DNA from: Firmicutes bacterium UBA5435 | Lineage (GTDB): Bacteria > Bacillota > UBA5435 | Assembly: GCA_002426645.1 (NCBI GenBank) | Contig: DIRN01000069.1 | Location: 12,469-76,468, forward strand | Length of the DNA stretch: 64,000 bases | Direction: 5' to 3' | In this document: piece by piece, positions 466 to 57,385 of the stretch | Layout: each line of letters opens with the position of its first letter | How positions within the stretch are numbered: position 1 is the stretch's first letter | The notes under the pieces: generated by a model | Told to the model about the DNA's origin: nothing | The model's database searches: none | The model's input: only the letters and a program-made list of their open reading frames with translations | Program-made: the position numbers and the translations under genes

Positions 466-1059
466 TTGGCTCATATTACGCGGACCCGAAGAGACCCTTA
501 GGGGTCCGCGACAGTACCCTCTGAAAACCTCTATCGATAAAGTTTTGCAGAACTTGTCTTTGCTACTAACTTTCATATTAAGCTGAACAGCAATATTGAA
601 CCTATCTCCTACTGCCTCAAATATTTTGCTAATATCAATAATGGATACTGCGAGATTCAATTGGTTCACCTCTTTATTTTCTTCAAGCCGTCATTTTCTA
701 CATAGCCAAGTCATTTTATTGACTAAATCCTTACTTTTTTCATGCTGAAAGATTTTTGGATTTCGGGAGGAATAAGTATATAAATGTAGAATATGTATTT
801 AATGAAATTAAATAGTATTGTTCATGTTTAAGTTAACTACTAGTCTAAACGTTTGGGTAGTTGCTCCTCATAAAAGGCAAGAATTTATTCTATCTATAAA
901 CATAGCATAAACATCCGCAAAACATCTAAACATAATATTCAACGAAACTGTCATACAGTTTTCGAGATTGTATATTTCCGATGAACTCATATAACAATTA
1001 GAATTAAATTGTTGAAGGGTAGCAATAAGATCACTATTATGATGGAAGAAGGATTGATT

Positions 1060-1815
1060 ATGCAGATTGACATTACATTCGTTCCACATGAAGACAAGCT
1101 GTTACTCCCGCTTCCGTATAATCAAGTAGTTCAGGGATTTATCTATAATCATCTTGATTATGCATTAAGTTCTTGGCTACATGACGAGGCATATGAGTAT
1201 AAGCGACGTAGATTCAAATTGTTTATCTTTGGACGTCTCACTGGAAAATATGCAATTAAGGAGAAGATGATAGAGTTTCAAGGACCTACTAGCTTAGCAG
1301 TTAGATCTGTAAATAATGATGTGCTATCGTCCTTTGCTCAACATCTGCTGAAAAAGAAAGAAGTTATACTAGGAAAAACACCCTGTACTATTTTAAATAT
1401 AAGTCTTACCCCTGACCCTGACATCGACTTTTCGAAACCAGTTCGGTTAAAGGCTCTTTCACCTGTAACAGTCTATAGCACATTACGTACATTTGATGGG
1501 CGCAAGAAGACGTATTATTATTCTCCAATGGAATCGGATTGGGAAAATCAAGTATTAGAAAATCTCATTCGTAAGAGTCAGGCTATTAGTGAAATAAAGG
1601 GTAATCATTTACCCAACAATGTTTGGATAAGGCCTAAGAATATTAAGACTTCCCATATGAAGATCCTTACGTTTAAGAATACGATAATAAAAGGCTGGAT
1701 GGGAATGTACGAGGTGTTTTTACCTAAAGAATTTTTCTTACTCGGGTACAATGGTGGTTTTGGGGCAAAGAATAGCCAAGGCTTTGGCACGATGGAGGTA
1801 ATAAGTAATGCTTAA
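1060..1815 (+). CDS. cas6: Cas6 crRNA endoribonuclease (type I-B)
   Basis: C-terminal Gly-rich loop GYNGGFGAKNSQGFG is the Cas6 hallmark. It is the first gene of a colinear cas operon. Start placed at ATG 1060 (RBS GAAGGA about 7 nt upstream, MQIDITF...), in frame with the track ORF 1009-1815. Confidence 0.8.
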   Translation: MQIDITFVPHEDKLLLPLPYNQVVQGFIYNHLDYALSSWLHDEAYEYKRRRFKLFIFGRLTGKYAIKEKMIEFQGPTSLAVRSVNNDVLSSFAQHLLKKKEVILGKTPCTILNISLTPDPDIDFSKPVRLKALSPVTVYSTLRTFDGRKKTYYYSPMESDWENQVLENLIRKSQAISEIKGNHLPNNVWIRPKNIKTSHMKILTFKNTIIKGWMGMYEVFLPKEFFLLGYNGGFGAKNSQGFGTMEVISNA

Positions 1816-3799
1816 GACCATGTATAACTTAAGTTTAGACTTCCTTTATTATGAACTCCGGAGGAATGGAGAACCCGATGATCCACTGGAGTGGTATATC
1901 TTTGTGAGAGAGGAAGATCCGCTGCGTATTTTTCCATACTTAATGGAATCTCCAAAAGAGTCTATGGCAACGAATTTTTATGTTTTATTTCCATCACCTG
2001 AAGATGAGACCACTGCCATCTTAGAACAGAGGGAGTTTGATCCTGATAAGCATACACAAAAGATTCCATTTATAAAACCTACAGGTTCGCAATCTCCAGC
2101 TTTAGGTCCTGTCATTAAGCGTTCTTATAATAAAGCTAAAGGAGGCCCTTCAGAAAACACTCTTTGGACGAATATTACTTCATTCGAGAGGATAGCTAAT
2201 GAGGGTAAAGAGTGGTCTGGTTTTTTCAAATATGCAGTAGATGTCTTAAAGAGACCTAATATTAAATTTATGGGCAAGCTCTATGAGGGTGATGAGGAGA
2301 GACCAGCTTTAGTACAGGCAATAGAGATAATTCCGGAGACGAAAACAGCCTTTTTAACAATTATCGGTGAAGATGGAAGATTACCCGGGGAGCACTTGGA
2401 GTATATTCATTATCTGCAGGAGGTAATAGGGGATGAGAAATATGCTACATCAAGTTATTTTCCTGTAGAAAATGGCATAGATATTTTAACCGGAACTAAA
2501 GGCGTTATATATCCTAACGCACTAAAAGGAGCTGGTATAAATATCACCAACGTGGATCGTATTGGCGTTTTTTCCATGTTAGAACCATCAAACGCATGGA
2601 AGAAGTATGCTTTATCTGTGGAGTCTGCAGATCTGCTATATATATTCAGTTACCATTTTAGAGATAAGTTTATAGGCAGAGTTGCTGGAGAAAGGGCTTT
2701 AATTTTACCTGAAGTTACTATGTCTTCAGAGACGCGAAAGGAATTCATTAATGATTTTCTAAATTACGTATCTGCTTCGCAAATGGAAAAAAGGGTATCT
2801 GCAAGGGAGGATTATCTGAGCTTTTTAGCAGCTGAAGAAGATTCTTTGGTCGGTATATCTATTATATGGGCGAAATTTGGACAACTTATGGAGAATGTAA
2901 AGGGCGTAATCTTTGATATTATGCCATCGAGATTATCTGCCCTATCCAAACTTATTGCTAAACAGAAGAAGATTAAATCACCTGTATTTCCACAGTATTG
3001 GATAGAAGATTGCGACTTCGATTTAGGACTTAATGGTTTTGCTAATCTTCTTAAACGCCCAGGAGGAATGCGCAACGCTAAAGTCAATAACGGTATGCAA
3101 TTGTTCAAGGTCAAGAGATATTTAGCAGCATCATTGTATGATGGTCAACAAATGAATGAGACGCTGTTATGGGACGAGATCATAGCCACTGCTCGGGAAT
3201 ACCTTATAGAAGCTCAAAATCGTGGTAATTCTTATGGCTTAACTAATGAAGGCGTTTCAAAGAGCGGAGAGGCATATCTGACATTAGCTGGTTGGGTAAG
3301 ATATATAGCTAGCTATTTAGATTTTTTTAGGAGGGCAGGTGTATTATTAAAGATGAATGACTGGGCTTATGAACCTCATTGTGATGAACTTAGAAAGTTT
3401 TTTAAAGATGCAGAAGCTACAGCGGGTCTGGACACTGAAGAGAAGGTTTACGCGTTTCTAATAGGGGCGCTCTTTGGTAAGTTAATGTCAATTCAAGCTG
3501 CACGAGGTGTTAATGTAGCTTCCAATGCTCTTACATGGCTGAGGCGACTTAGCTTATCCGCGAAGGACCTTCCCGAATTATATGTTAAAATACGTGAAAA
3601 GCTTTTTGCATATCAAAGTAGGGGCAGCAGTAGCATGAATGCAGTTTTAGAAGAAATAGGTCATTTAGGTGTAAAGATAGGTATTCCTAAGAATTTGAGC
3701 GCTATTGAAACAAATTATTATCTTCTTCTTGGGCAATCCCTATCTAATGTATTGATGCCACCGGTTTCTAAAGAGGATATCGAAAGCGAGGAGAAATAG
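1808..3799 (+). CDS. cas8b: Cas8b (Csh1) large subunit of type I-B Cascade
   Basis: 663-aa ORF between cas6 and cas7. Size and position fit Cas8b; no other family motif recognised. ATG 1808 overlaps the cas6 stop (coupled) with GGAGG upstream. Confidence 0.7.
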   Translation: MLKTMYNLSLDFLYYELRRNGEPDDPLEWYIFVREEDPLRIFPYLMESPKESMATNFYVLFPSPEDETTAILEQREFDPDKHTQKIPFIKPTGSQSPALGPVIKRSYNKAKGGPSENTLWTNITSFERIANEGKEWSGFFKYAVDVLKRPNIKFMGKLYEGDEERPALVQAIEIIPETKTAFLTIIGEDGRLPGEHLEYIHYLQEVIGDEKYATSSYFPVENGIDILTGTKGVIYPNALKGAGINITNVDRIGVFSMLEPSNAWKKYALSVESADLLYIFSYHFRDKFIGRVAGERALILPEVTMSSETRKEFINDFLNYVSASQMEKRVSAREDYLSFLAAEEDSLVGISIIWAKFGQLMENVKGVIFDIMPSRLSALSKLIAKQKKIKSPVFPQYWIEDCDFDLGLNGFANLLKRPGGMRNAKVNNGMQLFKVKRYLAASLYDGQQMNETLLWDEIIATAREYLIEAQNRGNSYGLTNEGVSKSGEAYLTLAGWVRYIASYLDFFRRAGVLLKMNDWAYEPHCDELRKFFKDAEATAGLDTEEKVYAFLIGALFGKLMSIQAARGVNVASNALTWLRRLSLSAKDLPELYVKIREKLFAYQSRGSSSMNAVLEEIGHLGVKIGIPKNLSAIETNYYLLLGQSLSNVLMPPVSKEDIESEEK

Positions 3800-3800
3800 T

Positions 3801-4760
3801 ATGAATAGTTATTTAAAGAATAGACATGAGTTTATATTTGCGTATGATATACGTATGGCTAATCCCAATGGAGATCCAGATGAAAATAGACCTAGAGTCT
3901 TACCAGATGGTACGTATTATGTCACAGATGTGAGGCTTAAGAGGTTTATAAGAGACTTTTTTAAAATGCAGGGACGCGATATTCTAGTTGATGATATTGA
4001 AGGTAAGACCACAAACCTTACAGGTCGTGTTGGTGCATATCTTAATAAGATTGGGAAACCAAAGGCGAACGGACAAGAATTGGTTGATATAATTTTAGAC
4101 TCTTTTATTGATGCTCGGCTCTTTGGAAGTACCTTAGCTTTTAAAGAATCAGCAGAACAGAAGTTTTCGCCAGAGCCTAAGACTCTTACTGGTGCAGTGC
4201 AGATTAAACATGGGGAAGCTTTACATCCTTGCCATGAGGTTTGGATAAGAGGTACCACTACCTTTGCTAGCCAAGAAGATAAGACACAGGGCACATTTAC
4301 CGAGATGTATGGTTTAAGATATGGATTATTTGCATTCAATGGAATAGCTAATCAGTATAATGCTGGGAAGTCTCATTTAACGGAAGAGGACTATCGCGAG
4401 ATGCTGCGGGCTATGTGGCTTGGTGTTAGGTCTGCTGCAAATACCCGTAGTAAGGCGGGTCAATCTCCTCGCTTTCTGTTAGAGATAGAGTATAAGACTG
4501 GGAGTGAATTTCAATTTGGATGTCTTTTAGACTATGTAAAAGTCTATGCTAATGATTCTGAGAAGAAAGATCCAACAACATGGTCTAGTCCTGATGATTA
4601 TACTATAGATCTATCCAGGCTCTTCCAAAGACTCAATCAGGCAGCTAACCATATTGATAAAGTATCGTATTGCATAAGTCCGGATATAAGATTAAAGGAA
4701 GAGGATATGAATGCTCTAAGGGAATATACAAACCTTAATTATGATAAGTTGGTGATGTAA
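3801..4760 (+). CDS. cas7: Cas7 (Csh2/DevR family) Cascade backbone subunit
   Basis: 319 aa. N-terminal ...FAYDIRMANPNGDPDENRPR... is the conserved Cas7/DevR motif. Position is after cas8b. Confidence 0.85.
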   Translation: MNSYLKNRHEFIFAYDIRMANPNGDPDENRPRVLPDGTYYVTDVRLKRFIRDFFKMQGRDILVDDIEGKTTNLTGRVGAYLNKIGKPKANGQELVDIILDSFIDARLFGSTLAFKESAEQKFSPEPKTLTGAVQIKHGEALHPCHEVWIRGTTTFASQEDKTQGTFTEMYGLRYGLFAFNGIANQYNAGKSHLTEEDYREMLRAMWLGVRSAANTRSKAGQSPRFLLEIEYKTGSEFQFGCLLDYVKVYANDSEKKDPTTWSSPDDYTIDLSRLFQRLNQAANHIDKVSYCISPDIRLKEEDMNALREYTNLNYDKLVM

Positions 4761-4761
4761 T

Positions 4762-5511
4762 ATGGCGGGCCATTCTGTTGTGGCATTTAAATACCATGCA
4801 CGGTTTGGACATTTTCTGTGTGCAGAGGCCAGTGCAAGCGGTTTATCATACCCTGTGCCTTCACGCACTGCTTTATTGGGTTTAGTAGGAGCAGTTCTGG
4901 GGTTGGAAAAGGATTCACCTCAGGAGCTTCTAAAAGGAGCAGAATTCGCTGTGCACGGCGTTAAACCAGTTACTCATTGGCATACAGCTAAGTTTAGGAA
5001 GGATCCACCGGATACATTATCTTGGACAGTGAGAAGAGGCGCTAAAGGGACATCAAAAAACGAGAAAGCGACATTACCCTCTCAAGAATGGCTCTTCAAT
5101 CCCAGCTATGTAATTATATCGTATTTGCCAGATGAGTACCATAGCGAGTTTGTCAGGCGTCTAAAGACCAAAGAACATTTCTATACGCCATGTATGGGAT
5201 TGAGTGAAATGTTAGCACATCTGGATTTTGTAGATGAGGGTATTGCAGAGTCTACAGGTGAAGACGAAATAATAAATTCTTTGACGTTAGTGAGGGCCGA
5301 CTGTGCTACTTTCGATGTCAGTAAGGTGATTTCAGAGGGGAAAAGGTTAGATGTACATTTGATTAGTCTTCCAAGGGATGTTACGGTTGATAGGGGATTT
5401 ACGCATGCTGATTATATATATGAGACGATGGGAAGACCTATTTCTGTTCGTACTTCTCATGGCTGGCGTGTGACTATAGACGGAGATATAAAGGAGTTTA
5501 TGTATCTATGA
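4762..5511 (+). CDS. cas5: Cas5 (type I-B)
   Basis: 249 aa. Gly-rich Cas5 N-terminal region (..SRTALLGLVGAVLGLEKD..). Tightly coupled to cas7 and cas3. Confidence 0.8.
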   Translation: MAGHSVVAFKYHARFGHFLCAEASASGLSYPVPSRTALLGLVGAVLGLEKDSPQELLKGAEFAVHGVKPVTHWHTAKFRKDPPDTLSWTVRRGAKGTSKNEKATLPSQEWLFNPSYVIISYLPDEYHSEFVRRLKTKEHFYTPCMGLSEMLAHLDFVDEGIAESTGEDEIINSLTLVRADCATFDVSKVISEGKRLDVHLISLPRDVTVDRGFTHADYIYETMGRPISVRTSHGWRVTIDGDIKEFMYL

Positions 5512-7793
5512 AACCTTTAAAATCGCATCCTAATAAATTATTGGAATGCCATATAAGAGAGGTACAACAGGCGGCTAATTCGATTCTATCACGTCACTGT
5601 TGTATACCCGTGGAAGCCGATGTTATAGAAGATATTGTGAGCCTTCATGATGTGGGTAAATCTACGTTATGGTTTCAGAAATATATCAATACTCAACGTT
5701 GGCAAGGGGATCCTATGCAAAAGGCTCATACTCCCCTTGGCTTTGTCCTCTCCACTGCTCTAGGAAGGGCAGCGGGGAGGGATCTTAAGTGGTATTTGCC
5801 TGTGTGTTTCAGCGTATTGGGACATCATAGCGGAATTCCAAGTAGAGAAGATATAAACTCCAAGTTACAGGGCGATGAGTGGCGAGATATATTAGAAAGA
5901 CAGTTTGAAAGTTTCCCTACAGTATCAGCTGCTGAAGCTATTGGACATTCTGCTAATCTATTAGATAATTTGGAGATAGACTTCTTCAAACTATATCGGC
6001 ATTGGTATAAGCTCTTTGTCGATGTGGATAAAATTTTAGAAGAAAATATTGAAGAGGCTATCCATCTTAGGCTATCCACACAATTTTGCTTTAGTGTGTT
6101 GCTTGAGGCTGATAAGGTATACCTTGCTCTCTCTGAGGATGGCAAGGATAGGTATCTTAACTCATCTAAGCCTGATTTTCAAGGAAACCTAGTCGATAGT
6201 TTCATAGCTGATCAGCCATATACACCAATAAATGAATTGAGATCAAAAGTGCGTAAGGAAGCATTAGAAATTATGGATTTGAATTCCGAATCACGGCTCT
6301 TTACGTTGACTTTACCTACAGGACTTGGTAAGACGTTGACCGCTGCATCCCTAGCTTTTACTAGATGGAAAAGGGCGGACGAAGCAAAGAAAATAATTAT
6401 CGTTTTGCCATATCTTTCAATAATAGATCAAACGTCTAAAGTCTATGGGGATCTTCTGGTTAATCCTGAGACTTCAGTGTTGATGCAAAGTCATAGCCTT
6501 AGCGATTATAAGTACGATGATACTGAAGAAGAGGATGCGGAGTTTTTTTTAGATACATGGCAAAGTAGCATTATTATTACTACTTTCGACCAATTTTTAC
6601 TTGCGTTATTAAGCTCTAAAACAAGGCATCAAATGAGATTTCATAATATGGTGGACGCTATCGTTATTATGGATGAGGTGCAAGCGATGCCTACTCATCT
6701 TTGGGATATAGTGGATCAGGCAATACGCAGCATGACTAAATCATTTAACACCACTGTCATAGCTATGTCAGCAACTCAACCAGGATTTATTAGAGATGCT
6801 TGTGAGTTGACGCGAGACAAGGTGAATCTTTATAGCCAATTTAATAGATATCAATTAGTATTGAAACATAGAACCCCAATGAAACTGGATGAATTCAGCG
6901 ATATGCTGCTTCGAGAGAGGAAGAAGGAGCTTAGCGAGAAGAGATTACTGGTTACACTTAATACTCGACGTAGCGCAAGAAAGGTGTTCGATAATTTGAA
7001 GGATTTTTGGCCACATCCAGTATATTTTCTCAGTGCGGATGTTACGCCTAAGGATCGGTTAAATGTCATTGAGAAACTTAAGAAAGATAAGGGGCCATGT
7101 CTTGTGGTATCTACTCAGGTTATAGAAGCAGGGGTAGATATAGATATGGATCATGTTATACGAGATTTTGCCCCTCTAGATAGTATTATTCAGGTCGCTG
7201 GTAGATGTAATCGAAATGGCAAAAAGACGTGTTCTGATGTAGAAGTAGTTTATCTAGTTGGTAAAGATGGAAAGTCATATGCTTCTAAAGTGTATAAAGA
7301 TGTTTCAGGCGGACCTGATCTTAGTTTGCAAGAAACTATTGGTGTTCTTGCGTCTCATGATGTGATACCGGAGCATTCTATACTTCCCTTTTGCGAAGAA
7401 TACTTTAAACGATTATATGAGAAGAAGAATATTGGTGCCACGCATACAAGGCAATGGGCTGGATTTATAGAGCCTTTGCCTGTTTCACAGCTTTTAAGGG
7501 GCGATTCATCACGGCAGCACTCGCTGATAATACCAGAGCGGGATGAAGATAAAGAAGAGCTGCTGCAGATAGTTGAAGAGACGCTTTCTCTGGAAGATCA
7601 TTGGGAACGAAGGAGAAGGCTTCGTAAAATAGCAGCTCGTTTAGCTAGCATAACAGTTAATGTTTGGGCTACTAGAGGATTTAATCCGGCGTATATAGCA
7701 GATAATATAGGTCCATATTGGTTTGTCAGGGAAGGGTATTATCATGAGGTTCGCGGGCTTGATTTGGGCATAAATGAGCCTTTGCTCTTGTAA
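5508..7793 (+). CDS. cas3: Cas3 nuclease-helicase (N-terminal HD domain fused to DEAD/DEAH helicase)
   Basis: HD motifs (LHDVGK, LGHHSG) at the N-terminus. Walker A LPTGLGKT and DEVQ box (IVIMDEVQA) in the helicase core. 761 aa. Confidence 0.9.
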   Translation: MKPLKSHPNKLLECHIREVQQAANSILSRHCCIPVEADVIEDIVSLHDVGKSTLWFQKYINTQRWQGDPMQKAHTPLGFVLSTALGRAAGRDLKWYLPVCFSVLGHHSGIPSREDINSKLQGDEWRDILERQFESFPTVSAAEAIGHSANLLDNLEIDFFKLYRHWYKLFVDVDKILEENIEEAIHLRLSTQFCFSVLLEADKVYLALSEDGKDRYLNSSKPDFQGNLVDSFIADQPYTPINELRSKVRKEALEIMDLNSESRLFTLTLPTGLGKTLTAASLAFTRWKRADEAKKIIIVLPYLSIIDQTSKVYGDLLVNPETSVLMQSHSLSDYKYDDTEEEDAEFFLDTWQSSIIITTFDQFLLALLSSKTRHQMRFHNMVDAIVIMDEVQAMPTHLWDIVDQAIRSMTKSFNTTVIAMSATQPGFIRDACELTRDKVNLYSQFNRYQLVLKHRTPMKLDEFSDMLLRERKKELSEKRLLVTLNTRRSARKVFDNLKDFWPHPVYFLSADVTPKDRLNVIEKLKKDKGPCLVVSTQVIEAGVDIDMDHVIRDFAPLDSIIQVAGRCNRNGKKTCSDVEVVYLVGKDGKSYASKVYKDVSGGPDLSLQETIGVLASHDVIPEHSILPFCEEYFKRLYEKKNIGATHTRQWAGFIEPLPVSQLLRGDSSRQHSLIIPERDEDKEELLQIVEETLSLEDHWERRRRLRKIAARLASITVNVWATRGFNPAYIADNIGPYWFVREGYYHEVRGLDLGINEPLLL

Positions 7794-7828
7794 TTTTTTA
7801 GATATCTATATATGGTGGGGTGATAGAT

Positions 7829-8356
7829 ATGTCTGAAGGAGGAAATGTTACGGGTGGAGGACATCTAGAGGTGAACGGGACAATGATGTGGTATTACCAC
7901 ATTTGTCCTCGGGAAGTTTGGTTGATAGGGCGTCAGATCACCCCCTACAAAGAAGATGATAATATGGAGATGGGCCGATATATATCTGAAAAGTCTTATA
8001 AGCGTGAGAGGAAAGAAGTTGAGATTGGTCCAGTTAAAATTGATGTCCTCTCAGCCCGAAATGGACGGGTTGTTGTGGGCGAGATAAAAAAGAGTTCTAA
8101 ATATATGGAAAGTGCTAAGATGCAACTCTTGCTTTACCTAGATATATTACAGAAGGCAGGGATAGAAGCTGAAGGAGAACTGCGCGTTCCGTTGGAGCGA
8201 AAACGGGAAAGGGTAGTTTTGGATGAAGAAAATAAAAAGAAATTAGAGCATGCGAAACGAGATATTTTGAGAATTTTATATTTGGGCAAACCTCCAGAAC
8301 CTAAAAAGGTAAACTGGTGTACTAAATGCGCCTACAGGGAATTTTGTTGGTCATAA
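7829..8356 (+). CDS. cas4: Cas4 RecB-like nuclease with Fe-S cysteine cluster
   Basis: N-terminal Cys (ICPREVW) plus C-terminal CTKCAYREFC cluster. RecB-motif residues present. Start ATG 7829 (RBS GGTGGGG 8 nt upstream); the track ORF starts at GTG 7820. Confidence 0.8.
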   Translation: MSEGGNVTGGGHLEVNGTMMWYYHICPREVWLIGRQITPYKEDDNMEMGRYISEKSYKRERKEVEIGPVKIDVLSARNGRVVVGEIKKSSKYMESAKMQLLLYLDILQKAGIEAEGELRVPLERKRERVVLDEENKKKLEHAKRDILRILYLGKPPEPKKVNWCTKCAYREFCWS

Positions 8357-8378
8357 AGTATTCTTAGGGGGCTAAGTC

Positions 8379-9374
8379 ATGAAAAAGACTGTGTATTTAT
8401 TTACAGATGGGCAAGTATCCCGTAAGGATAATACATTTGTCTTTCAAAGTGCTACTGATAAGCGTTTCCTTCCGATAGAACAAATAGGAGAGATATATGT
8501 CTTTGGTGAGGTTGATGTAACAAAGAAATTTCTTGAGTTGGCATCTAAGAATGAGATATTAATTCACTATTTTAATTATTATGGCTATTATGTTGGTACA
8601 TTTTATCCGCGGGAGCACCTAAACTCGGGATATATGATACTCAAACAAGCAGAAGCATATATGAACGAGGAAAGCAGGTTAGGATTGGCAAATAAATTTG
8701 TAATGGGAGCAGTAGAAAATATTGAAAGAGTGTTAAAATACTACGAGCGAAGGAAAGAAGGTTTTCCTAGTTTATTATTGGAGCAACTTGGAGAATTGAA
8801 GTCGCAAATTATGCTACAGGAATCTGTTGAAGCTCTTATGGCTATAGAAGGTAATATTCGTAATCTTTATTATTCAGCCTTTGATTTTATAATAGGGGAT
8901 CCAAATTTTAAATTTGTGGAGAGAAGTAGGCGGCCTCCTAAAAACGAATTGAACACGTTAATTAGTTTTGGAAATTCCATGGTATATACTACTGTATTGA
9001 GTCAGATTTATAGAACACATCTTGATCCGAGAATAGGATACCTTCACGCGACTAATTTTCGATCGTTTAGTTTAAATTTAGATGTGGCGGAGATTTTTAA
9101 GCCTATTATAGTTGATAGATTGATATTTAATATACTTAATCATAAGGCTATCACGAAAAATGATTTCTATGAAGATTCTGGCGGTATCATAATGAAAGAA
9201 ACAGGTAAGAAGACTTTTGTAAGCGAGTTTGATAAGCGACTTAAAACTACGATTAAGTTACGAGGGCTAGGAAGATCTGTGTCGTATAGAACTTTGATAC
9301 GTCTTGAGCTTTATAAAATTCAGAAACATCTAATGGGTGAGAAGGAGTACAAGCCATTTGTAGCAAGTTGGTGA
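8379..9374 (+). CDS. cas1: Cas1 integrase
   Basis: 331 aa. Typical Cas1 length and C-terminal acidic catalytic region. Position is between cas4 and cas2. Confidence 0.85.
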   Translation: MKKTVYLFTDGQVSRKDNTFVFQSATDKRFLPIEQIGEIYVFGEVDVTKKFLELASKNEILIHYFNYYGYYVGTFYPREHLNSGYMILKQAEAYMNEESRLGLANKFVMGAVENIERVLKYYERRKEGFPSLLLEQLGELKSQIMLQESVEALMAIEGNIRNLYYSAFDFIIGDPNFKFVERSRRPPKNELNTLISFGNSMVYTTVLSQIYRTHLDPRIGYLHATNFRSFSLNLDVAEIFKPIIVDRLIFNILNHKAITKNDFYEDSGGIIMKETGKKTFVSEFDKRLKTTIKLRGLGRSVSYRTLIRLELYKIQKHLMGEKEYKPFVASW

Positions 9375-9968: not shown

Positions 9969-10455
9969 GTTTATATTCTACCTATGAGGGTTTGAAACCC
10001 ACACGGACACTCGCCCGCCCCTGACAGCATCACCGTTTATATTCTACCTATGAGGGTTTGAAACAAAATTGCTTCGTATCTTAAGTATAGCAAATCATAG
10101 TTTATATTCTACCTATGAGGGTTTGAAACTACCCCCTCTTACACACCTCCCGACTGAACTGTATTGTTTATATTCTACCTATGAGGGTTTGAAACTGACG
10201 TCATATGGAGCGCTATGATTTCGAGGCCAGGTTTATATTCTACCTATGAGGGTTTGAAACATCTAATAGGGAATGCTCTTCTTTTCGCAGTGGAGTTTAT
10301 ATTCTACCTATGAGGGTTTGAAACGGCGGAGATGCAACGCTACAAATTCCGCTACACATAGTTTATATTCTACCTATGAGGGTTTGAAACGCAGGCGCAG
10401 GCGGAGGGGTAATCATAGAAGCAATGTTTATATCCTACCTTGTATGGAAGGGCCG
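9969..10455 (+). CRISPR. CRISPR array: 8 x 30-bp repeat GTTTATATTCTACCTATGAGGGTTTGAAAC, 7 spacers (34-36 bp), last repeat degenerate
   Basis: Exact repeats at 9969, 10035, 10100, 10166, 10231, 10295 and 10361. Degenerate copy GTTTATATCCTACCTTGTATGGAAGGGCCG at 10426-10455. The GTTTGAAAC 3' end (8-nt handle) is typical of I-B repeats. Confidence 0.95.
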
Positions 10456-46376: not shown

Positions 46377-46691
46377 ATGTACGCAGTTATTGAAACTGGT
46401 GGTAAACAGTATAAAGTGAGTGAAGGCGATATTTTAAAGATCGAGAAGTTAAATGTAGAAGAAGGTCAAGATGTAAAATTTGATAAGGTGCTTCTTTATA
46501 GTAATGGAGACGAATTACAGATTGGAAAGCCGTTACTTGAGAATGTTTCAGTCTCAGGTAAGGTTTTAGCCCATGGAAAAGGAAAGAAGATAATAGTTTT
46601 TAAGTATAAACCCAAGAAGAACTACCGTAAGAAGAAGGGTCATCGTCAGCTCTTTACTAAAGTTCGCATCGAAGAAATTGCCATAGCTTAA
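46377..46691 (+). CDS. rplU: 50S ribosomal protein L21
   Basis: [18 protein letters not shown]... is the canonical L21. Confidence 0.95.
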
Positions 46692-46706
46692 GCATGAGGT
46701 GCCTAA

Positions 46707-47042
46707 ATGATCGAAGTGTGGTTTTTAAGAGACGATGAAGATCATATAGTGGAATTTCGCGTATCTGGACACGCAGAATTTAATGAGTACGGCGCGGATA
46801 TTGTATGCGCTGCTGTTTCTATTCTTGTTCAAAGCGCAATCCTTGGACTTGAGGAACATCTTAATATAGAGATTGATGTCAAGGTTGTTTCTGGAATGAT
46901 AGGATGTACTATTTCAGAGATAGAAGATAGTATCATGCGTTTGAGAGTTGATGCGATTTTAGAAACCATGATCCTTGGATTACAGGGAATAGCAGAAGAA
47001 TATGAGAAAAACGTTAAAATAATTGAGGCTGATCGGTGTTAA
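46707..47042 (+). CDS. prp: Ribosomal-processing cysteine protease Prp (YsxB/DUF464)
   Basis: 111 aa between rplU and rpmA. Conserved GHA..CAAVS motif (catalytic His/Cys). Confidence 0.85.
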   Translation: MIEVWFLRDDEDHIVEFRVSGHAEFNEYGADIVCAAVSILVQSAILGLEEHLNIEIDVKVVSGMIGCTISEIEDSIMRLRVDAILETMILGLQGIAEEYEKNVKIIEADRC

Positions 47043-47064
47043 ACTGGTATGGAGGTGAACAATT

Positions 47065-47364
47065 ATGAGAATAGATCTTCAGTTTTTTGCGAAGAAGAAG
47101 GGTGTTGGTAGCTCTAGGAATGGTAGAGATAGTGAATCAAAGCGCCTTGGCGTAAAGAGATATGGTGGGGAGCTTGTCTCGGCTGGTAGCATTATTATAA
47201 GACAGAGAGGTACTAAAATCAAGCCAGGCGAAAATGTAGGTCTTGGAAGAGATCACACTCTCTTTGCCACTATTGACGGATATGTTTCTTTTGAACACTC
47301 GGGTAGGAACGGAAGGAAAGTAAGCGTACTTTCTGAAGATGAATGGATGGCAATAAACGCATAA
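47065..47364 (+). CDS. rpmA: 50S ribosomal protein L27 (with N-terminal propeptide cleaved by Prp)
   Basis: [23 protein letters not shown]... gives the Firmicutes N-terminal extension followed by the L27 core. Confidence 0.95.
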
Positions 47365-47384
47365 GAATATATTTATAAATCTGG

Positions 47385-47426
47385 ACGTGCTCGTATTAAA
47401 TGAAAGCGGGCACGTTTTTTCTTTTT
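47385..47426 (+). terminator. Rho-independent terminator after rpmA
   Basis: Stem ACGTGCTCG (47385-93) with CGGGCACGT (47407-15), followed by TTTTTTCTTTTT. Confidence 0.8.
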
Positions 47427-47676
47427 AGTCCAGCAATGTACAGCTGAACATCTATAAGTCAATTCAAGTCATACTTATACATGAATCAATAAAGTTTAAA
47501 AGATATACATGAAAAGAGGAAATATGGTAAAAATGTCGAATAAATAAATACTGCGCTATATTTATGGTAAAAGGCTAAGTTATTTTATTAATGTTGCTTT
47601 ATTACAACTTTTCTAAAGTGGCAGCAAAATAAGTGTATTCGTATTCAACATGACTAGATAAGGGTGTGGGCTTGTT

Positions 47677-48576
47677 ATGCAACGCAAGGAATTTTCAAAG
47701 ATCTTTGGTATTATAATGGTTCTTTTCCTCCAAACCATCATAATCCTTTGGCTATCTCTAAATGTCTATATAAAAGATGTTGAAGCTTCGTATGAAGTTC
47801 CCGTTATTGCTTTGCGAATTCCCGCATTCTTTGCGATTATTTTGTCATGCGTTAGCGTAAGAATGACTAAGAGATTGGTAGAGATGGCTAATGCTGAAAT
47901 AGAGAGTGAGCTATATCGAGTGGAACTTCAACGGAGTAAGGAGCTCATAGATTCTCTTCGAGCACAACGTCATGATTTTTATACTTATCTCAGCGTTCTT
48001 ATGGGACTCATACAACTTGGGAAGACTAATAAAGCTATAGATTATATATCTGATGTCGCGAAGAATTTACAGGAAATTGGCTCAATAGCTGAGCTTGAAG
48101 ACCATTCTATCTTGAACGCGCTTATTGTAACAAAGAAAAGCAGAGCTTTAGAAGAAGGGTTTACCTTTACACTTAAGTTTCAAACGGCTTTAAATGATGT
48201 AAAGATCTCTGAGTATAAACTTTCAAGGATTTTAGGGAATATAATAGATAATGCTATAGATGCTCTTAAAGAAAACCGTCCACTTGAACCTAGGCTAGAG
48301 GTTACTGTAGAACGAAGAGAGAATACAATCGTATTTAGTATATGGAATAACGGTCCTCCTATCTCTAAAGATAAGATATGTAGGATATTTGAATCAGGAT
48401 ACACTACTAAAGATGGTGATGGGCATGGCTTGGGTCTTAGCATTGTAAAGACCCTTGTGAGTGAGATGGGTGGCACTGTAGATGTTACAAGCGATTTAGA
48501 AGAAGGCACCTGTTTTACTATAGCTATACCATTTGTTCTTTTATCAATATCACAAAGTGATAAGGAAATACCTTGA
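47677..48576 (+). CDS. Membrane-anchored sensor histidine kinase (2 TM, SpoOB/CitA-type alpha-helical DHp with H-box QRHDF, intact GHKL ATPase)
   Basis: TM1/TM2 with a roughly 15-residue external loop. H-box RAQRHDFYTYLSVLMGLIQLG. N-box LGNIIDNAIDA, G1 WNNGPPI, G2 GHGLGLSIV. No adjacent response regulator. Sits in the rpmA-(spo0B)-obg slot. Confidence 0.8.
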   Translation: MQRKEFSKIFGIIMVLFLQTIIILWLSLNVYIKDVEASYEVPVIALRIPAFFAIILSCVSVRMTKRLVEMANAEIESELYRVELQRSKELIDSLRAQRHDFYTYLSVLMGLIQLGKTNKAIDYISDVAKNLQEIGSIAELEDHSILNALIVTKKSRALEEGFTFTLKFQTALNDVKISEYKLSRILGNIIDNAIDALKENRPLEPRLEVTVERRENTIVFSIWNNGPPISKDKICRIFESGYTTKDGDGHGLGLSIVKTLVSEMGGTVDVTSDLEEGTCFTIAIPFVLLSISQSDKEIP

Positions 48577-48690
48577 ACTTATATTTTTTATAGTATATAC
48601 TGAAGATATCAGATCACGAGATAAGCAGTTTGATGCTATCTCGTTTCTTGTAAAATGAGGTGAATCCCTCGGTGTGGTACGGAGGTGTAA

Positions 48691-51088
<2,398 letters not shown>

Positions 51089-51093
51089 TATAG

Positions 51094-52347
51094 GTGAATA
51101 AGAGTGAAGTCTTTGAGAGGGCCTCTAAGGCGAAGGATGCAGCACGTCTCCTTAGTAATCTTTCAACTGAGGTAAAGAATAATGCCCTTCTTGCTATGGC
51201 TGATGCCCTTGAGCAGGAGACGGATACTATAATACAATCTAATAAGATTGATGTAGAGATAGGGAAGAAAAAAAATCTTCCTGCTGCTCTCGTTGACAGG
51301 CTCGTACTGAATGAATCGAGAATAAAGGGTATGGCTGATGGTTTACGCGAAGTAGCTGAACTTCCAGATCCTGTAGGTAAAGTCATTTCCATGTGGCGGC
51401 GCCCTAATGGTCTTGAGATCGGCCGGCGTCGTGTTCCCCTTGGTGTAGTAGGTATAATCTATGAGGCTAGACCAAATGTTACTGTGGATGCAGCAGGACT
51501 TGCTCTTAAAGCAGGGAATGCAGCTTTACTGCGTGGGAGTTCCGAGGCGATAAACTCTAATAAAGCCATTGTAAAGATAATAAAATCTGCTGCAAGAGGT
51601 AAGGGGATTCCTCCAGGAGCTATAGAACTCATAGAACGCACTGATAGAAAAGCAGTAGAGGAAATGATGAAGTTGCGAGGTTACATTGATGTCTTGATTC
51701 CTCGAGGAGGTCCAGGACTTATTAAGGCTGTAGTTGAGAACTCCATTGTGCCTGTGATAGAGACAGGCGCTGGAAATTGCCACACCTATATTGAAGCATC
51801 AGCAGATCTAAAGATGGCAAAGGCAATAGCTTTTAACGCAAAGACTCATCGACCTGGTGTTTGTAATGCCATGGAGACTTTGCTTGTAGATAAGCGCATA
51901 GCCCAGGAGTTCCTACCCGAGTTAGTTAAGGTCCTTCAGGAAGCAGGGGTGGATATTAGAGGGTGCGAAGAAACATGTAAGATAGTCACTAATATTAAGA
52001 GAGCTAATGAAGATGACTGGTCTACAGAATACCTAGATCTGACTTTAGCAGTAAAAATAGTGAATGGTATAGACGAAGCTATAGCGCATATAAACAAGTA
52101 CAGTACAAAGCACTCTGAGGCTATAGTTACTAGAGATTATAATATGAGCCGTAGGTTCTTAGAAGAGGTGGATGCTGCAGCTGTTTACGTTAATGCCTCT
52201 ACAAGATTTACAGATGGGAATCAGTTCGGGTTAGGTGCTGAAATGGGCATTAGCACTCAAAAACTTCATGCTCGCGGACCTATGGGCCTTGAAGAGCTCA
52301 CTACCACTAAGTTTGTAATTTACGGTAACGGACAAATTAGAAAGTAA
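51094..52347 (+). CDS. proA: Gamma-glutamyl phosphate reductase
   Basis: Aldehyde-dehydrogenase-fold ProA (..NASTRFTDG.., catalytic Cys region). 417 aa. Confidence 0.9.
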   Translation: MNKSEVFERASKAKDAARLLSNLSTEVKNNALLAMADALEQETDTIIQSNKIDVEIGKKKNLPAALVDRLVLNESRIKGMADGLREVAELPDPVGKVISMWRRPNGLEIGRRRVPLGVVGIIYEARPNVTVDAAGLALKAGNAALLRGSSEAINSNKAIVKIIKSAARGKGIPPGAIELIERTDRKAVEEMMKLRGYIDVLIPRGGPGLIKAVVENSIVPVIETGAGNCHTYIEASADLKMAKAIAFNAKTHRPGVCNAMETLLVDKRIAQEFLPELVKVLQEAGVDIRGCEETCKIVTNIKRANEDDWSTEYLDLTLAVKIVNGIDEAIAHINKYSTKHSEAIVTRDYNMSRRFLEEVDAAAVYVNASTRFTDGNQFGLGAEMGISTQKLHARGPMGLEELTTTKFVIYGNGQIRK

Positions 52348-52457
52348 GGTATATTTACAAATAGCGCACACAGAACCTTTGATTGTATGCGCCATAAATC
52401 CCATAAAAGGAGGGATATGGAACGGTATTCCTTTAGGGGATATTGTGACATTCTTCT

Positions 52458-53114
52458 GTGAAAGTAATTAAAGATAACAAAATCCGTAGGATCGGAATAA
52501 TGGGTGGAACCTTTGACCCTATTCATTATGGTCATCTCGTAACTGCTGAAGCAGCGCGTGCTGAATTTGATATGGAAGATATAATCTTCGTTCCTTCAGG
52601 ACGTCCGCCGCATAAACACGAATACGAGGTGAGCGAAGGTGAAGATCGTTACTTAATGACTGTGCTAGCAACTATAACCAATCTGAACTTCCAAGTATCC
52701 CGAACTGAGTTAGAGAGGGAAGGACCTACATATACAGTTGATACCCTCATAGATTTCCGAAAGAAATATAAAGATGACGTGGAACTTTATTTTATTACAG
52801 GCGCGGATGCTATCTTAGAGATCTTTACATGGAAAGACGTTCCGAATCTCTTGTCCTCTTGCTCTTTTGTTGCAGCAACACGCCCAGGATATTCTAGAGA
52901 GAAACTCAACGGGATAATCGATACCATCAGAGAGCGGTATGGGACTAATATATATTATTTAAATGTTCCTGCCCTTGCTATATCATCTACTGATATAAGG
53001 GAGCGGGTGAGGAGCGGTAGACCCATTAAGTATCTTTTACCTGAGGCTGTTGAGGATTATATAGCAAAGAAAGGGCTTTATGGAGAACCAATGAGGACGC
53101 GTTTAAATGGATGA
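52458..53114 (+). CDS. nadD: Nicotinate-nucleotide adenylyltransferase
   Basis: [16 protein letters not shown] (H/T)xGH motif. Start GTG 52458 (alternative ATG 52500). Confidence 0.85.
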
Positions 53115-53694
53115 AGAACTTGTAATCAAAGCAATTAAGAGAGTAATGTCTCCCCAAAGATTTCTTCATTCTCTTGGGGTGCAAGATACTGCTGAAAAGC
53201 TAGCTGCAAAGTACGGTGCTGATGTGAAGAAAGCTTCTTTAGCAGGTCTTCTTCACGACTATGCTCGTGATCTTGAAAATTCATCTCTCTTAAAGAAATC
53301 TATAGACTTTAGTATGTCTATTAATGAGGTTGAGAGGTTAGCGCCAGTATTACTCCATGGTCGTATTGGAGCAAAGCTTGTTCAGGAAGAGCTTGGCATA
53401 GACGATGATGAGGTTCTGAGCTCTATATCATATCATACTACTGGTACTTTAAGTATGACATTATTGCAGCAGATAATATATGTTGCTGATTACATAGAAC
53501 CTAGCAGGGACTTTCCTGGTGTCCAGAAGATACGAGAAGCTACGTGGAATAACTTGGATTTAGGCACCTTAGAAGCCTTTGAACATACCTTAAGTTATCT
53601 CCTTGAAAGGAAGGTATTGATACATCCAGCTACGGTAGAAGGTAGAAACTTCCTTCTATCTAAATTATATATAAACCGTAATGGAGGTCAATGA
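53107..53694 (+). CDS. yqeK: HD-domain bis(5'-nucleosyl)-tetraphosphatase YqeK
   Basis: HSLGV..., LLHDYAR HD motifs. Conserved nadD-yqeK pair. Confidence 0.85.
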
Positions 53695-54818
53695 ATTTGA
53701 AGGTAAGGATCTTTTTTATTACCCTTTTTCTAATCATAGTATTCCTTATAGGGAAAGTTATAATATATCCATTTCTTCAGGGCCCTGACTATTTTACTGA
53801 TAAGAGGATAAACCTTCTTATTCTAGGTATAGATGATGTGGAAGGTACAAAACGTTCTGACACTATTATCGTTAGTTCTCTTGATTTAGATGGGGATGAG
53901 TTCTGGTTTCTTTCTGTGCCTAGGGATACCATGCTAGATATAGAAGACTATGGACTTGATAAAGCTGGACATGCTTATGCTTATGGTGGTATAGAGTTGA
54001 CCTATAAAACCGTGTCTGAACTTTTAGATATACCCCTTCACCATTACGTACTCCTGGATTACAATGGGTTTAAGAAGATAGTAGATATAATGGGTGGGGT
54101 AGATATAGAGGTTGAAAAGCAGATGCACTATGAGGATAAGACAGCTGGATTTATCATAGATTTAGAACCTGGCTTTCAGAAGTTAGATGGAGAAAAGGCT
54201 CTACAATATGTAAGGTTTAGATCTGATGGTGATGGAGATTTAGGACGCATAGGACGTCAACTAAAGTTTATGCGTAGCGCTGCCCAACAGTGGGTCCAAC
54301 TTTCTTTCCTTTGGAAGGCTCCCTCTCTTTTCTTTGCATTGCGAGAAGGGATTCGTACTGATATGTCATTTTCTACACTAATGGCTTTAGCTGGCTTTGC
54401 TAAACACTTTAAAACAGAGAAGTTTTTTGCCACTAAACTTCCAGGAGATGCACGTTACGTAGATGACATAAGTTTTTGGATACCAGATAAAGATAGGATA
54501 GATGCCCTTGTAGGTAAGTTTTTTTATGGTGAGGGTAGGACGGAAAGACCACGTATAGAAGTATTGAACGGGAATGGAATTCCAGGAGCTGCTAGGAAGG
54601 TCAGTGACTTGCTTATAGATAATGGATTCAATGTAGTAGGTGCTGGAGATGCATGGAGCTCTGACTTTGAAGAAACATTGATAATAGATAAGGTAGGCTA
54701 TAGGGAGCTAACTACTGAACTGGCTGGTATTCTAGATGCACCTGTGCTCATTGATTATGGTGGGAGTATAAAATATTCAGAAATTTTAGTTATAGTAGGT
54801 AAAGACAGAGTGTTTTAA
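53691..54818 (+). CDS. LytR-CpsA-Psr (LCP) family cell-envelope phosphotransferase
   Basis: N-terminal TM. LCP core (LILGIDD...RSDTIIV...VPRDT). C-terminal LytR_C-like extension. Confidence 0.85.
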   Translation: MNLKVRIFFITLFLIIVFLIGKVIIYPFLQGPDYFTDKRINLLILGIDDVEGTKRSDTIIVSSLDLDGDEFWFLSVPRDTMLDIEDYGLDKAGHAYAYGGIELTYKTVSELLDIPLHHYVLLDYNGFKKIVDIMGGVDIEVEKQMHYEDKTAGFIIDLEPGFQKLDGEKALQYVRFRSDGDGDLGRIGRQLKFMRSAAQQWVQLSFLWKAPSLFFALREGIRTDMSFSTLMALAGFAKHFKTEKFFATKLPGDARYVDDISFWIPDKDRIDALVGKFFYGEGRTERPRIEVLNGNGIPGAARKVSDLLIDNGFNVVGAGDAWSSDFEETLIIDKVGYRELTTELAGILDAPVLIDYGGSIKYSEILVIVGKDRVF

Positions 54819-54842
54819 GTAGGTACTTGGAGGGGATATAAT

Positions 54843-56204
54843 ATGCTTATAAATCCTAGTGAAGTTCTTGAGACTATAAATATGGTTGAAGCAGAACATC
54901 TAGATATACGTACTGTAACTTTAGGTCTAAGCCTGAAGGATTGCGTTCATCAAGATCCTGCTTTATTTAGAGAACGTGTCTATAATAAGATAGTAAAGGT
55001 TGCAGGGAGACTATGTACTGTTGTAGAAGGGATACAGAGACGATACGGCATACCTATAGTAAACAAAAGAATCGCTGTTACCCCAATCTCCGTAGTAGGG
55101 GGTTCCTATGATAAAGAAGCATTAGTAGAGGTAGCTCATACCTTGGAAGATGCAGCCTGTGAGGTTGGAGTAGATTTCATAGGTGGTTTTTCTGCTTTAG
55201 TTCATAAGGGGTATACAAAGGGTGATAGAGCGCTGATAGAGGCTATCCCAGAGGCTTTATCTACTACAAAAAGAGTGTGCTCTTCAGTGAACCTTGCTAC
55301 GACTAAAGCAGGTATTAATATGGACGCAGTCCTTCATATGGGACGAATTATAAAAGAGTGTGCTAGACAGAGCCAGTCCCATGGAGGAATAGCTTGCGCA
55401 AAGTTAGTGGTATTTGCAAATGTCCCAGAGGATAATCCCTTTATGGCTGGTGCCTTCCATGGTGCTGGAGAGGGAGAAGCAACGATAAATGTAGGGATAA
55501 GTGGACCAGGAGTAGTACGCTCCGTTGTTGAGAGGTTTCCAGATATAGATCTAGGAGACTTATCAGAGCAAATAAAGAAGACCGCATTTAAGATAACCCG
55601 TGTTGGAGAATTGGTAGGGAGAAAGGTAGCAGAGGAATTGGGGATTCCCTTTGGCATTGTAGATCTCTCTTTAGCACCTACTCCTGCACCTGGTGATAGC
55701 GTTGCTAATATCCTTGAGGCAATGGGACTTGAACGCTGTGGGACTCATGGTACTACTGCAGCGTTAGCTCTTCTCAATGAAGCGGTTAAGAAAGGTGGTC
55801 TTATGGCTTCTTCATATGTTGGAGGCTTGAGTGGAGCATTTATACCTGTAAGCGAAGATCAGGGTATGATCGAAGCAGTAATGAAAGGTGCACTTTCTCT
55901 CAACAAGTTAGAAGCCATGACCTCAGTCTGTTCTGTTGGCCTGGATATGATAGCTGTTCCTGGGGATACTTCGGACGAGACAATTTCCGCTATCATAGCA
56001 GATGAAATGGCTATTGGAGTTATTAATAATAAGACTACTGCAGTACGTATAATCCCTGCTATTGGCAAGAAAGAAGGGGACATTATAGAATTTGGAGGGC
56101 TTCTTGGTTCTGCTCCAGTAATGCCAGTGAGCGACTTTGATTCATCATCTTTTGTCAGAAGGGGTGGCCGTATTCCTGCACCAACACGGGCACTAACAAA
56201 TTAG
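54843..56204 (+). CDS. UPF0210 (DUF711) family protein
   Basis: 453 aa, [28 protein letters not shown]... is characteristic of UPF0210. No ACT-domain partner ORF nearby. Confidence 0.75.
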
Positions 56205-56743
56205 AAGCTACCAAAGAACCATCTTGTTATGGATATAGCAGCTATAAAGGCTGCTATATCTGCCATTAAACCTACAGTAAGAGCGTGGCGAAACTTTTTT
56301 ATGCCAATTGAGGCGAAGTATATTGTTAAAATGTAGACTGTAGTATCAGTACTGCCCTGTATAGTAGAGGCAAGACGTCCAGCATACGAGTCAGGACCAA
56401 GGGTATGAAAGAGATCTACTGTCATAGTTAACGATGCTACTCCTGAGAGTGGTCTTACGATAAAAAGTGGAACCACTTCTGCTGGGATACCTAAAGGGAC
56501 GAGGATGGGGCTTAAGATATTAGTAAAAATCTCCATAGCCCCGGAATCTCTGAAGATCCCTATAGCTATGAAGAGGCCTACCATATAAGGGATGAGCTTT
56601 ATGGCTGTCCAAAAACCTTCTTGGGCACCTTCAACGAAAACTTCGAAGACTCTTACTTTTTTGTAATAACCATAGCCTAAGATGAGGGACATGAAGATGG
56701 GTATGGCCCACCGCGATGCCTGAGTTATAAGGGAAAAGAACAC
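56201..56743 (-). CDS. spmB: Spore maturation protein B (nucleoside-recognition-domain membrane protein)
   Basis: 180-aa membrane protein downstream of spmA on the minus strand. Confidence 0.75.
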
Positions 56744-56749
56744 CTAGAC

Positions 56750-57385
56750 TCACCTCCTTTTCTTCCTATGTACATTGTGATTTTTGTGTGCTATTTCAGC
56801 TTGCTTTTTTCGTTTATTCTTTGCTCTGAATATGGCATCTGCAATTATAGCTACTGCTGTGGAGCAGCTGGTAGCAAAGAGAGTAGTCCCTACGATCTCG
56901 CTAGGGTTTGCAGACCCTGATGCAGCACGCATAGCAATAAGGGTAGTTGGGATCAGTGTTACACTGGAAGTATTAATGGCAAGAAAGGTGCACATACCTT
57001 CACTTGCTGTGCTCTTATCTTCGTTAAGTTCTTGTAGCTCCTTCATTGCTTTCAGTCCAAAAGGGGTGGCAGCGCTACCAAATCCCATCATATTTGCACA
57101 GATATTCATGAGGATACAACCCATAGCAGGATGTCCCTTTGGAAGAGACGGGAAGAGAAATTTTATAACGGGATAAATTAGGTCTGTCATTCGTTTTAAG
57201 AGACCAGATTCTTCCGCTACTTTTGCCATGCCTAACCAAAGCGTCATTATTCCAATGAGACCGATTACCTTTTCTACTGCTCCATTTGCTGATGAGACTA
57301 TGGAGTTTGTTACGACATCGACATTACCGTTTACAGCAGCTATAAGTATTCCTCCCACTATGAGTAAAAAGAATATTAAGTTCAT
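56750..57385 (-). CDS. spmA: Spore maturation protein A
   Basis: 211-aa nucleoside-recognition (Gate) domain membrane protein. spmA-spmB pair. Confidence 0.75.
   Translation of the reverse strand: MNLIFFLLIVGGILIAAVNGNVDVVTNSIVSSANGAVEKVIGLIGIMTLWLGMAKVAEESGLLKRMTDLIYPVIKFLFPSLPKGHPAMGCILMNICANMMGFGSAATPFGLKAMKELQELNEDKSTASEGMCTFLAINTSSVTLIPTTLIAMRAASGSANPSEIVGTTLFATSCSTAVAIIADAIFRAKNKRKKQAEIAHKNHNVHRKKRR

Follow-up and report, generated by a model that had tools for sequence, protein, structure and literature searches.

A histidine kinase gene between rpmA and obg

We analyzed a 64,000-nucleotide (nt) stretch of DNA from Firmicutes bacterium UBA5435 (contig DIRN01000069.1, positions 12,469 to 76,468), referred to here as the window, and in particular the gene that lies in it between rpmA and obg. 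This is the neighborhood by which Spo0B is recognized; here it holds a membrane histidine kinase of 299 amino acids. The gene is preceded by rplU, prp and rpmA, the last of which is separated from it by 312 nt of non-coding DNA, and is followed by obg 117 nt past its stop codon (Table 1). A first-pass annotation of the window had described a histidine kinase with two transmembrane helices at this place; the intact open reading frame, its Pfam domains and the flanking genes are all as described. L21, Prp and L27 were also called on an identical metagenome contig.

The two transmembrane helices form an N-terminal hairpin with a loop of only ∼10–15 residues, and there is no extracytoplasmic sensor domain; the hydrophobic segments lie at about residues 9–27 and 43–61, and an AlphaFold2 model has helices at residues 2–35 and 43–113. 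The DHp domain that follows is of the SPOB_a type, again as first annotated, and carries His99 in the H-box QRHDFYTYL, where the histidine is nearly invariant in the family alignment. The first-pass annotation had also called the catalytic domain intact, and this stands: besides HATPase_c the domain matches HATPase_c_5 (Pfam, 52.6 bits), and the motifs of a GHKL ATPase are all present. Read from an alignment of 27 homologues (the window protein and 26 others), these are the N box GNIIDN192AIDA, the F box IFESGYTTK (family form IFxxG(F/Y)TTK), the G2 box GHGLGLSIV (family form GxGLGLSIV) and the G1 box W-N-N-G-P-P-I (family form N-N-G-P-x-I), with N188, N192, G241, G251 and G253 invariant. The G1 box carries Asn where many kinases carry Asp, a variant also found in ThkA, an active kinase that has been solved with ADP-Mg (3a0t).

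The predicted fold is in keeping with the motifs. The model (mean predicted local distance difference test score 79.8) has active kinases as its top structural matches, namely HK853, ZraS with ADP and ThkA with ADP-Mg (template-modeling score 0.82 and root-mean-square deviation 2.1 Å for the latter). The AgrC kinase module ranks 26th and Spo0B falls outside the top 50. The identical protein is present in assemblies from several sources (six contigs read). By motifs and model the window gene encodes a real and apparently catalytically competent membrane histidine kinase.

No partner lies nearby. As had been noted before, no response regulator is found: a phmmer search returned no REC or LytTR open reading frame anywhere in the 64 kb, nor does the window encode Spo0F or Spo0A. 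Within 64 kb the kinase is an orphan.

Relatives of the kinase and their agr contexts

Only two close relatives of the window kinase were found, P0002 (63% identical) and P0003 (57% identical). Both are encoded directly upstream of obg, each with a gene for a polytopic membrane protein on the 5′ side of the kinase gene. The locus of P0003 (L083) reads L21-Prp-L27, a 44-amino-acid AgrD-like peptide, a 165-amino-acid polytopic membrane protein, kinase and Obg; the open reading frame of the peptide has a strong ribosome-binding site and the sequence MKRFNKKAIFGVLGAFLLAIASGGIGTACIGFYYEPEMPKACDK. The locus of P0002 (L101), a contig of 1.5 kb, comprises a membrane protein 62% identical to that of L083, the kinase and the start of Obg. 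Housekeeping proteins of L083 and the window are 66–73% identical, indicating related but distinct organisms with a common arrangement.

Beyond these two the position is not shared. No L27, L21 or Obg was found within 4 kb in the best 80 genome loci, among the matches listed; a scan of genome contigs with the family alignment returned many CitA-type kinases and, again among the matches listed, no close relative of the window organism. Residence in the rpmA–obg slot is a peculiarity of the small clade to which the window belongs.

The next relatives, at 30–37% identity, are found in agr contexts, a connection that the first-pass annotation missed. In L085 the order is membrane protein-kinase-AgrB (PF04647)-39-amino-acid peptide; in L103 AgrB-35-amino-acid peptide-membrane protein-kinase; in L061 membrane protein-kinase-AgrB-LytTR regulator; and in L021, L030 and L024 kinase-AgrB-peptide (AgrD-like)-LytTR regulator. 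L023 (447 amino acids) and L060 (436 amino acids) encode fused proteins, followed by AgrB and a peptide. Both agrB and agrD are present in L085, L103, L021, L023, L024, L030 and L060, and a LytTR regulator is adjacent to the kinase in L021, L024, L030 and L061.

The AgrD-like peptides (n = 8) have a hydrophobic leader, a core Cys or Ser and, in seven of the eight, a C-terminal Y-[E/Q]-P-x-x-P; the peptide of L083 fits this description. The nine precursors listed in Table 1 are unannotated or nameless, and the Y-[E/Q]-P-x-x-P core is found in eight of them, usually followed by a basic tail. Several carry Ser at the position expected of the thiolactone Cys, which by sequence suggests lactone-type or linear signals.

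A further arrangement recurs in metagenome-assembled genomes of Clostridia: an operon in which a short SPOB_a kinase with two transmembrane helices is accompanied by an NfeD-like protein, a flotillin-like FloA, an uncharacterized protein of ∼150 amino acids and a LytTR regulator (Table 1). The proteins are presumably NfeD and FloA, labels that we assigned by eye from the sequences. In this floA-linked subgroup the regulator lies ∼2 kb downstream of the kinase.

What the window protein is a part of can be read from its alignment to AgrC. Residues 10–263 align to positions 139–395 of the 414-position model of Staphylococcus AgrC (NF046015), such that the two transmembrane helices and kinase module are collinear with the last two transmembrane helices and kinase of AgrC, and the fused proteins of L023 and L060 align to positions 41–398 and 50–400 of the same model. 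The window kinase also matches the GHKL subtype PF14501, and the genes of its relatives share operons with agrB and with genes for AgrD-like peptides and LytTR regulators. There are differences: the DHp domain is of the SPOB_a (CitA/Spo0B) type, the receptor is split over two genes in many members, and the window kinase, which sits in the spo0B slot, has only two transmembrane helices whereas AgrC is polytopic with six to seven. In the relatives four to five further helices are supplied, encoded upstream in a gene of their own or fused to the kinase. Given the collinearity of fused proteins and window protein with the AgrC model, the simplest reading would be a split AgrC-like receptor, in which one gene encodes the first four to five transmembrane helices and the other the last two together with the kinase. 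Targeted literature searches returned no description of a split AgrC.

Neighbor-joining trees (BLOSUM62 distances, 100 bootstrap replicates) were built from the DHp domain only (87 columns, 51 taxa) and from the DHp plus catalytic domains (207 columns, 47 taxa; kinases only, Spo0B-type proteins not being included). In both trees the slot kinases form a single clade (100/100 replicates). Its sister group in the DHp-only tree consists purely of agr-linked kinases in about 80/100, and in the two-domain tree it is the agr-linked P0009 and/or P0005 in 88/100. CitA-type kinases form a separate clade.

Among curated models NF008298 gave the highest score, but its 130 bits, from a match to the DHp and catalytic domains, are far below the cutoff (520). 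The window kinase shares the SPOB_a type of DHp domain with CitA, DcuS and MalK but lacks their periplasmic Cache/PAS and cytoplasmic PAS domains, is ∼240 amino acids shorter and has no adjacent regulator of CitB/DcuR type. On architecture and trees we rejected membership of the CitA/DcuS group. Clustering with CitA/DcuS kinases combined with a lack of synteny in related genomes had been named beforehand as evidence against the first-pass interpretation; there is no such clustering, and synteny does not extend beyond the two closest relatives.

With moderate confidence we read the window gene as the kinase half of a split AgrC-type quorum-sensing receptor, belonging to an agr-associated family with a SPOB_a-type DHp domain, active and orphan. 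A cassette of agrD-like peptide gene, gene for a membrane protein with four to five transmembrane helices and gene for a kinase with two would have come into the rpmA–obg slot in an ancestor shared by the three taxa; the window genome would later have lost the peptide and partner genes and kept the kinase alone. A partner protein and/or a peptide encoded elsewhere may pass the signal to the sensor-less hairpin within the membrane. The GHKL domain would then bind ATP and phosphorylate His99, steps to which motifs and fold point, and the phosphoryl group would pass to a regulator encoded outside the window. By family precedent a LytTR/AgrA-type regulator is the most likely recipient, with Spo0A as the main alternative.

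Several observations weigh against this reading. The window protein scores only 61.4 bits against the AgrC model, for which the cutoff is 500. The window has no agrB, agrD, membrane partner or LytTR regulator locally: no open reading frame for AgrB, the membrane partner or an AgrD-like peptide was found in the 64 kb, nor the AgrD-like C-terminal motif in any frame. The sister locus L083 has no AgrB within ∼4 kb. Since the nearest subclade (slot kinases, P0004, P0005 and P0009) is without an adjacent regulator, assignment of a LytTR recipient leans on more distant members. The trees rest on short alignments in which the degenerate Spo0B-type sequences are long branches. Finally, the reading offers nothing but coincidence or a permissive site to account for the exact place and orientation of the gene, which like spo0B lies directly upstream of obg.

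The absence of partner genes raises the possibility that the window gene is a decaying remnant, that is, a non-signaling relic that is heading to pseudogenization after loss of the peptide gene and membrane partner. The window is indeed without the partner gene of both closest relatives and without the peptide gene, and upstream there is only the non-coding spacer, in which blastn and tblastx detected no relic of membrane partner or agrD and matched only a conserved block of 38 nt. The reading frame is, however, intact, the catalytic motifs and transmembrane hairpin are conserved with the 57–63% identical relatives, an upstream regulatory block is conserved too, and one and the same protein recurs in assemblies from several sources. 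We regard decay as very improbable.

Spo0B, Spo0A and the conserved upstream element

Davidson et al. (2018; PMC6136694) predicted Spo0B from the L21/L27/Obg neighborhood, for 18 of 30 spore-forming Clostridia, and validated the phosphorelay of D. acetoxidans in vitro. Their criterion required the absence of Pfam domains, and a slot protein with HATPase_c would consequently have been excluded. A metagenome scan with Obg returned 13 loci (≤65% identity) with two genuine Spo0B-type slot genes, L088 and L089 (Moorella): the former encodes a protein of 157 amino acids, the latter the 180-amino-acid Spo0B-type protein of Moorella thermoacetica, which is 98% identical to a named protein of M. thermoacetica, P0124. 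A Spo0B-type profile search gave 347 relatives, the best 120 of which are 140–197 amino acids long and carry PF14689 with or without PF14682; HATPase_c is found in none of the 120. The genuine clostridial Spo0B-type proteins that we recovered are soluble, 140–194 amino acids long and without HATPase_c.

The window kinase is nonetheless akin to them. It occupies the same slot on the same strand, its SPOB_a DHp domain has an RHDF H-box, and it matches the Moorella protein with 27% identity over 136 amino acids (E 9e-14). The aligned stretch takes in the DHp domain and also the beginning of the catalytic domain, a part that is degenerate in the Moorella protein. Two N-terminal transmembrane helices are known from a Spo0B of Paenibacillus (PMC12826061), and ATPase and autophosphorylation activity of B. 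anthracis Spo0B is described in a report cited in the same paper. In mean DHp distance to clostridial Spo0B-type proteins, the short-kinase family is nearer than CitA-type kinases (0.79 vs 0.85).

These likenesses would be expected of a kinase-competent Spo0B: a local orthologue, kept in situ, that acts as phosphotransferase from Spo0F to Spo0A and has retained ancestral transmembrane helices and an active ATPase domain. The residues that define specificity (see below) also differ at a single position from those of D. acetoxidans Spo0B. Against this, the GHKL domain is intact whereas that of Spo0B, including clostridial Moth_0560 and Dtox_3313, is degenerate and non-catalytic; the protein is longer than any of the best 120 Spo0B-type matches; and Pfam gave no match to PF14682, the degenerate C-terminal domain of Spo0B in Bacilli. 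Thr103 and Ser106 (Thr and Asn in P0002 and P0003) stand at H+4 and H+7, where an alignment of seven Spo0B sequences has invariant Asn and Gln. In the DHp-only tree the slot clade is sister to Spo0B-type proteins in 0/100 replicates, and by distance to them the slot kinases rank only 8–14 of 47, the nearest kinases being P0007, P0004 and L061. The sister loci, moreover, hold a membrane partner in the slot, and L083 also the AgrD-like gene. We therefore consider a kinase-competent Spo0B quite improbable. The first-pass annotation had proposed an ancestral-type relative of Spo0B; trees, distances and the lost H+4 and H+7 residues, together with a place nested among agr-linked kinases, do not favor this. 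By sequence comparison the window kinase is a homologue of Spo0B at the level of the DHp domain, its orthology with Spo0B being unsupported by the trees, and it should not be annotated as Spo0B.

The kinase whose DHp domain is nearest to clostridial Spo0B-type proteins among those sampled, P0007, comes from a metagenome-assembled genome of Thermacetogeniaceae (L087, 4001–5580) and is encoded outside the rpmA–obg slot. In specificity residues it is identical to D. acetoxidans Spo0B (QVGLQL), and the next gene encodes a protein with a Germane (GerM-like) domain.

Upstream of the window kinase is an element that may bear on its control. TGTCGAA is found at 47534–47540, 137 nt 5′ of the start codon, as the first-pass annotation had stated in calling it a Spo0A box; we too take TGTCGAA-type elements to match the Spo0A-box consensus. 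It lies within the 38-nt block mentioned above, which is 82% identical to L083 2845–2882, the remaining spacer being diverged or unalignable. The same TGTCGAATA core, flanked by similar A-rich sequence, is also present 61 nt 5′ of the distant cassette L085, and L081 has a near match, TGTGGAATA. TGTCGAA is at chance level in the window (5 found vs 4.4 expected), and only conservation across loci carries weight. The window block and its counterpart in L083 could also be read as a ribosome-binding site followed by a mini open reading frame of four codons (MSNK* in the window, MSNT* in L083). This was rejected: CTG replaces ATG in L085, and a DNA or RNA element is for this reason more likely than a leader peptide. 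By sequence the block looks like a conserved candidate cis-element. The TGTCGAATA element may mean that the cassette itself is under transcriptional control, possibly by Spo0A.

The window kinase could also be a direct sporulation kinase, rewired from a LytTR partner to Spo0A; an orphan kinase that feeds Spo0A had been one of the suggestions of the first-pass annotation. It would phosphorylate Spo0A directly and so tie a membrane or peptide signal to the onset of sporulation, and Spo0A would in turn control the cassette through the 0A box. We compared specificity residues at H+7, +8, +11, +12, +14 and +15, a register taken from Davidson et al. and verified with their entries for KinA and Spo0B. 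The window kinase has SVGLQL, identical to CA_C3319 of C. acetobutylicum, P0002 and P0003 have NVGLQL, and D. acetoxidans Spo0B has QVGLQL. The pattern N/S-V-G-x-Q-L resembles that of orphan kinases from genomes predicted for direct phosphorylation of Spo0A (PMC6136694), while family members with an adjacent LytTR regulator differ (QV[SG]LE[LM], QVGLTI, QVMLQA and similar). The nearest subclade is orphan, the TGTCGAATA element has been kept 5′ of three cassettes, and it is currently unexplained how sporulation of C. difficile is promoted by Agr peptides (PMC11210211), all of which is consistent with such a role.

Other considerations speak against it. CitA-type kinases also show xVGLQL (HVGLQL, FVGLQL), so that the specificity argument is only suggestive; xVGLxL is common throughout the SPOB_a/CitA family, and it was mainly DHp domains of the HisKA type that served to calibrate the specificity code. 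CA_C3319 is likewise an orphan but is a HisKA-type kinase with HK_CA:3 according to PMC6136694, in contrast to the window protein, whose DHp domain is of the SPOB_a type and which lacks PAS. The same holds in comparison with KinA-E and the clostridial orphan sporulation kinases in general: Pfam finds neither HisKA nor PAS in the window kinase. The chance-level count of TGTCGAA adds to this. Nor does the window testify to sporulation. The adjacent genes at 56201–57385 on the minus strand, previously called spmAB, match only the generic Gate domain and have no NCBIfam match at E≤1e-10, and no sporulation-specific gene was found among the scanned open reading frames of at least 120 amino acids, which are most, not all, of those in the window. 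Spo0A and sporulation are thus hypothetical for the organism, as is any sporulation link of the window kinase. A direct Spo0A kinase appears to us possible, if unlikely.

On a bolder reading, the slot may keep, or have re-acquired, a kinase-competent, membrane-bound relative of the family from which Spo0B arose, an Agr-type peptide receptor that passes a quorum signal directly to Spo0A, with feedback from Spo0A via TGTCGAATA. We think this rather improbable. If it were true, Spo0B would derive from an AgrC-like quorum-sensing kinase that was stripped down, with the window locus as a living intermediate.

Flanking features and implications for the family

Coordinates are collected in Table 1. 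The hairpin and T-run that follow rpmA are also seen at the matching position of the alignment with L083; a promoter and terminator scan gave nothing beyond shuffled expectation, and the hairpin was not called by the simple terminator scan. The spacer between kinase and obg (48577–48693) contains an inverted repeat, ACGAGATA...TATCTCGT, followed by TTCTTGT, and may act as a weak terminator or attenuator ahead of obg. Only 21 nt separate the kinase stop codon from obg in L083.

Table 1. Positions of features in the window and of related features in other loci.
Feature	Position	Strand	Remarks
rplU	46377–46691	+	Open reading frame call; upstream flank of the slot
prp	46707–47042	+	Open reading frame call, Peptidase_Prp match; upstream flank
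rpmA	47065–47364	+	Open reading frame call; upstream flank
Hairpin and T-run after rpmA	47384–47426	+	Read from the sequence; likely rpmA terminator
Conserved intergenic block	47513–47550	+	Holds 0A-box-like core ATGTCGAATA; candidate cis-regulatory element of the cassette
Kinase open reading frame	47677–48576	+	ATG start, 299 amino acids; probable kinase half of an AgrC-type receptor
N-terminal transmembrane hairpin	47701–47862	+	Two helices, about residues 9–31 and 42–62; hydropathy
SPOB_a-type DHp domain	47926–48093	+	Residues 84–139; Pfam PF14689, 48.3 bits (cutoff 28.1)
Codon of phospho-accepting His99	47971–47973	+	H-box QRH99DFYTYL
GHKL catalytic ATP-binding domain	48214–48534	+	Residues 180–286; HATPase_c PF02518, 88.4 bits (cutoff 26.4)
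obg	48694–49971	+	GTP1_OBG, MMR_HSR1 and DUF1967 domains; downstream flank
AgrD-like precursors	L083 3229–3363; L085 5775–5894; L103 3355–3462; L102 224–337; L021 2082–2207; L030 5318–5452; L024 1352–1504; L023 5369–5506; L060 5332–5475		
Kinase-nfeD-floA-X-LytTR operons	L004, L005, L008, L013, L014, L015, L019 (e.g. 3850–7544), L043, L055		

Eleven window proteins (46377–56204; L21, L27, Prp, MreB and MinD among them) fall into 90%-identity clusters of one to two sequences each. The source organism belongs to a sparsely sampled lineage and is present in the fermentation metagenome SRR1562006 and a few other runs. Farther from the kinase, the window contains a CRISPR-Cas locus at 1009–9374 (cas6, a large subunit of the TM1802 family, cas7, cas5, cas3, cas4 and cas1) and, at 9969–10407, a CRISPR array of at least seven copies of the 30-nt repeat GTTTATATTCTACCTATGAGGGTTTGAAAC with a spacing of 64–66 nt.

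The window locus shows that a true kinase can sit where genome-neighborhood rules would call Spo0B, and inference of a phosphorelay for this lineage should not lean on the window kinase. Together with its relatives, the kinase points to a receptor family with a SPOB_a-type DHp domain, often split into a gene for a protein with four to five transmembrane helices and a gene for a kinase with two, and linked to agrB/agrD and LytTR regulators. The fact that the DHp domain of clostridial Spo0B-type proteins is nearer to this short-kinase family than to CitA-type kinases makes the family a concrete candidate for the source of Spo0B. If the link to Spo0A were true, the window kinase would connect a peptide quorum signal directly with entry into sporulation.

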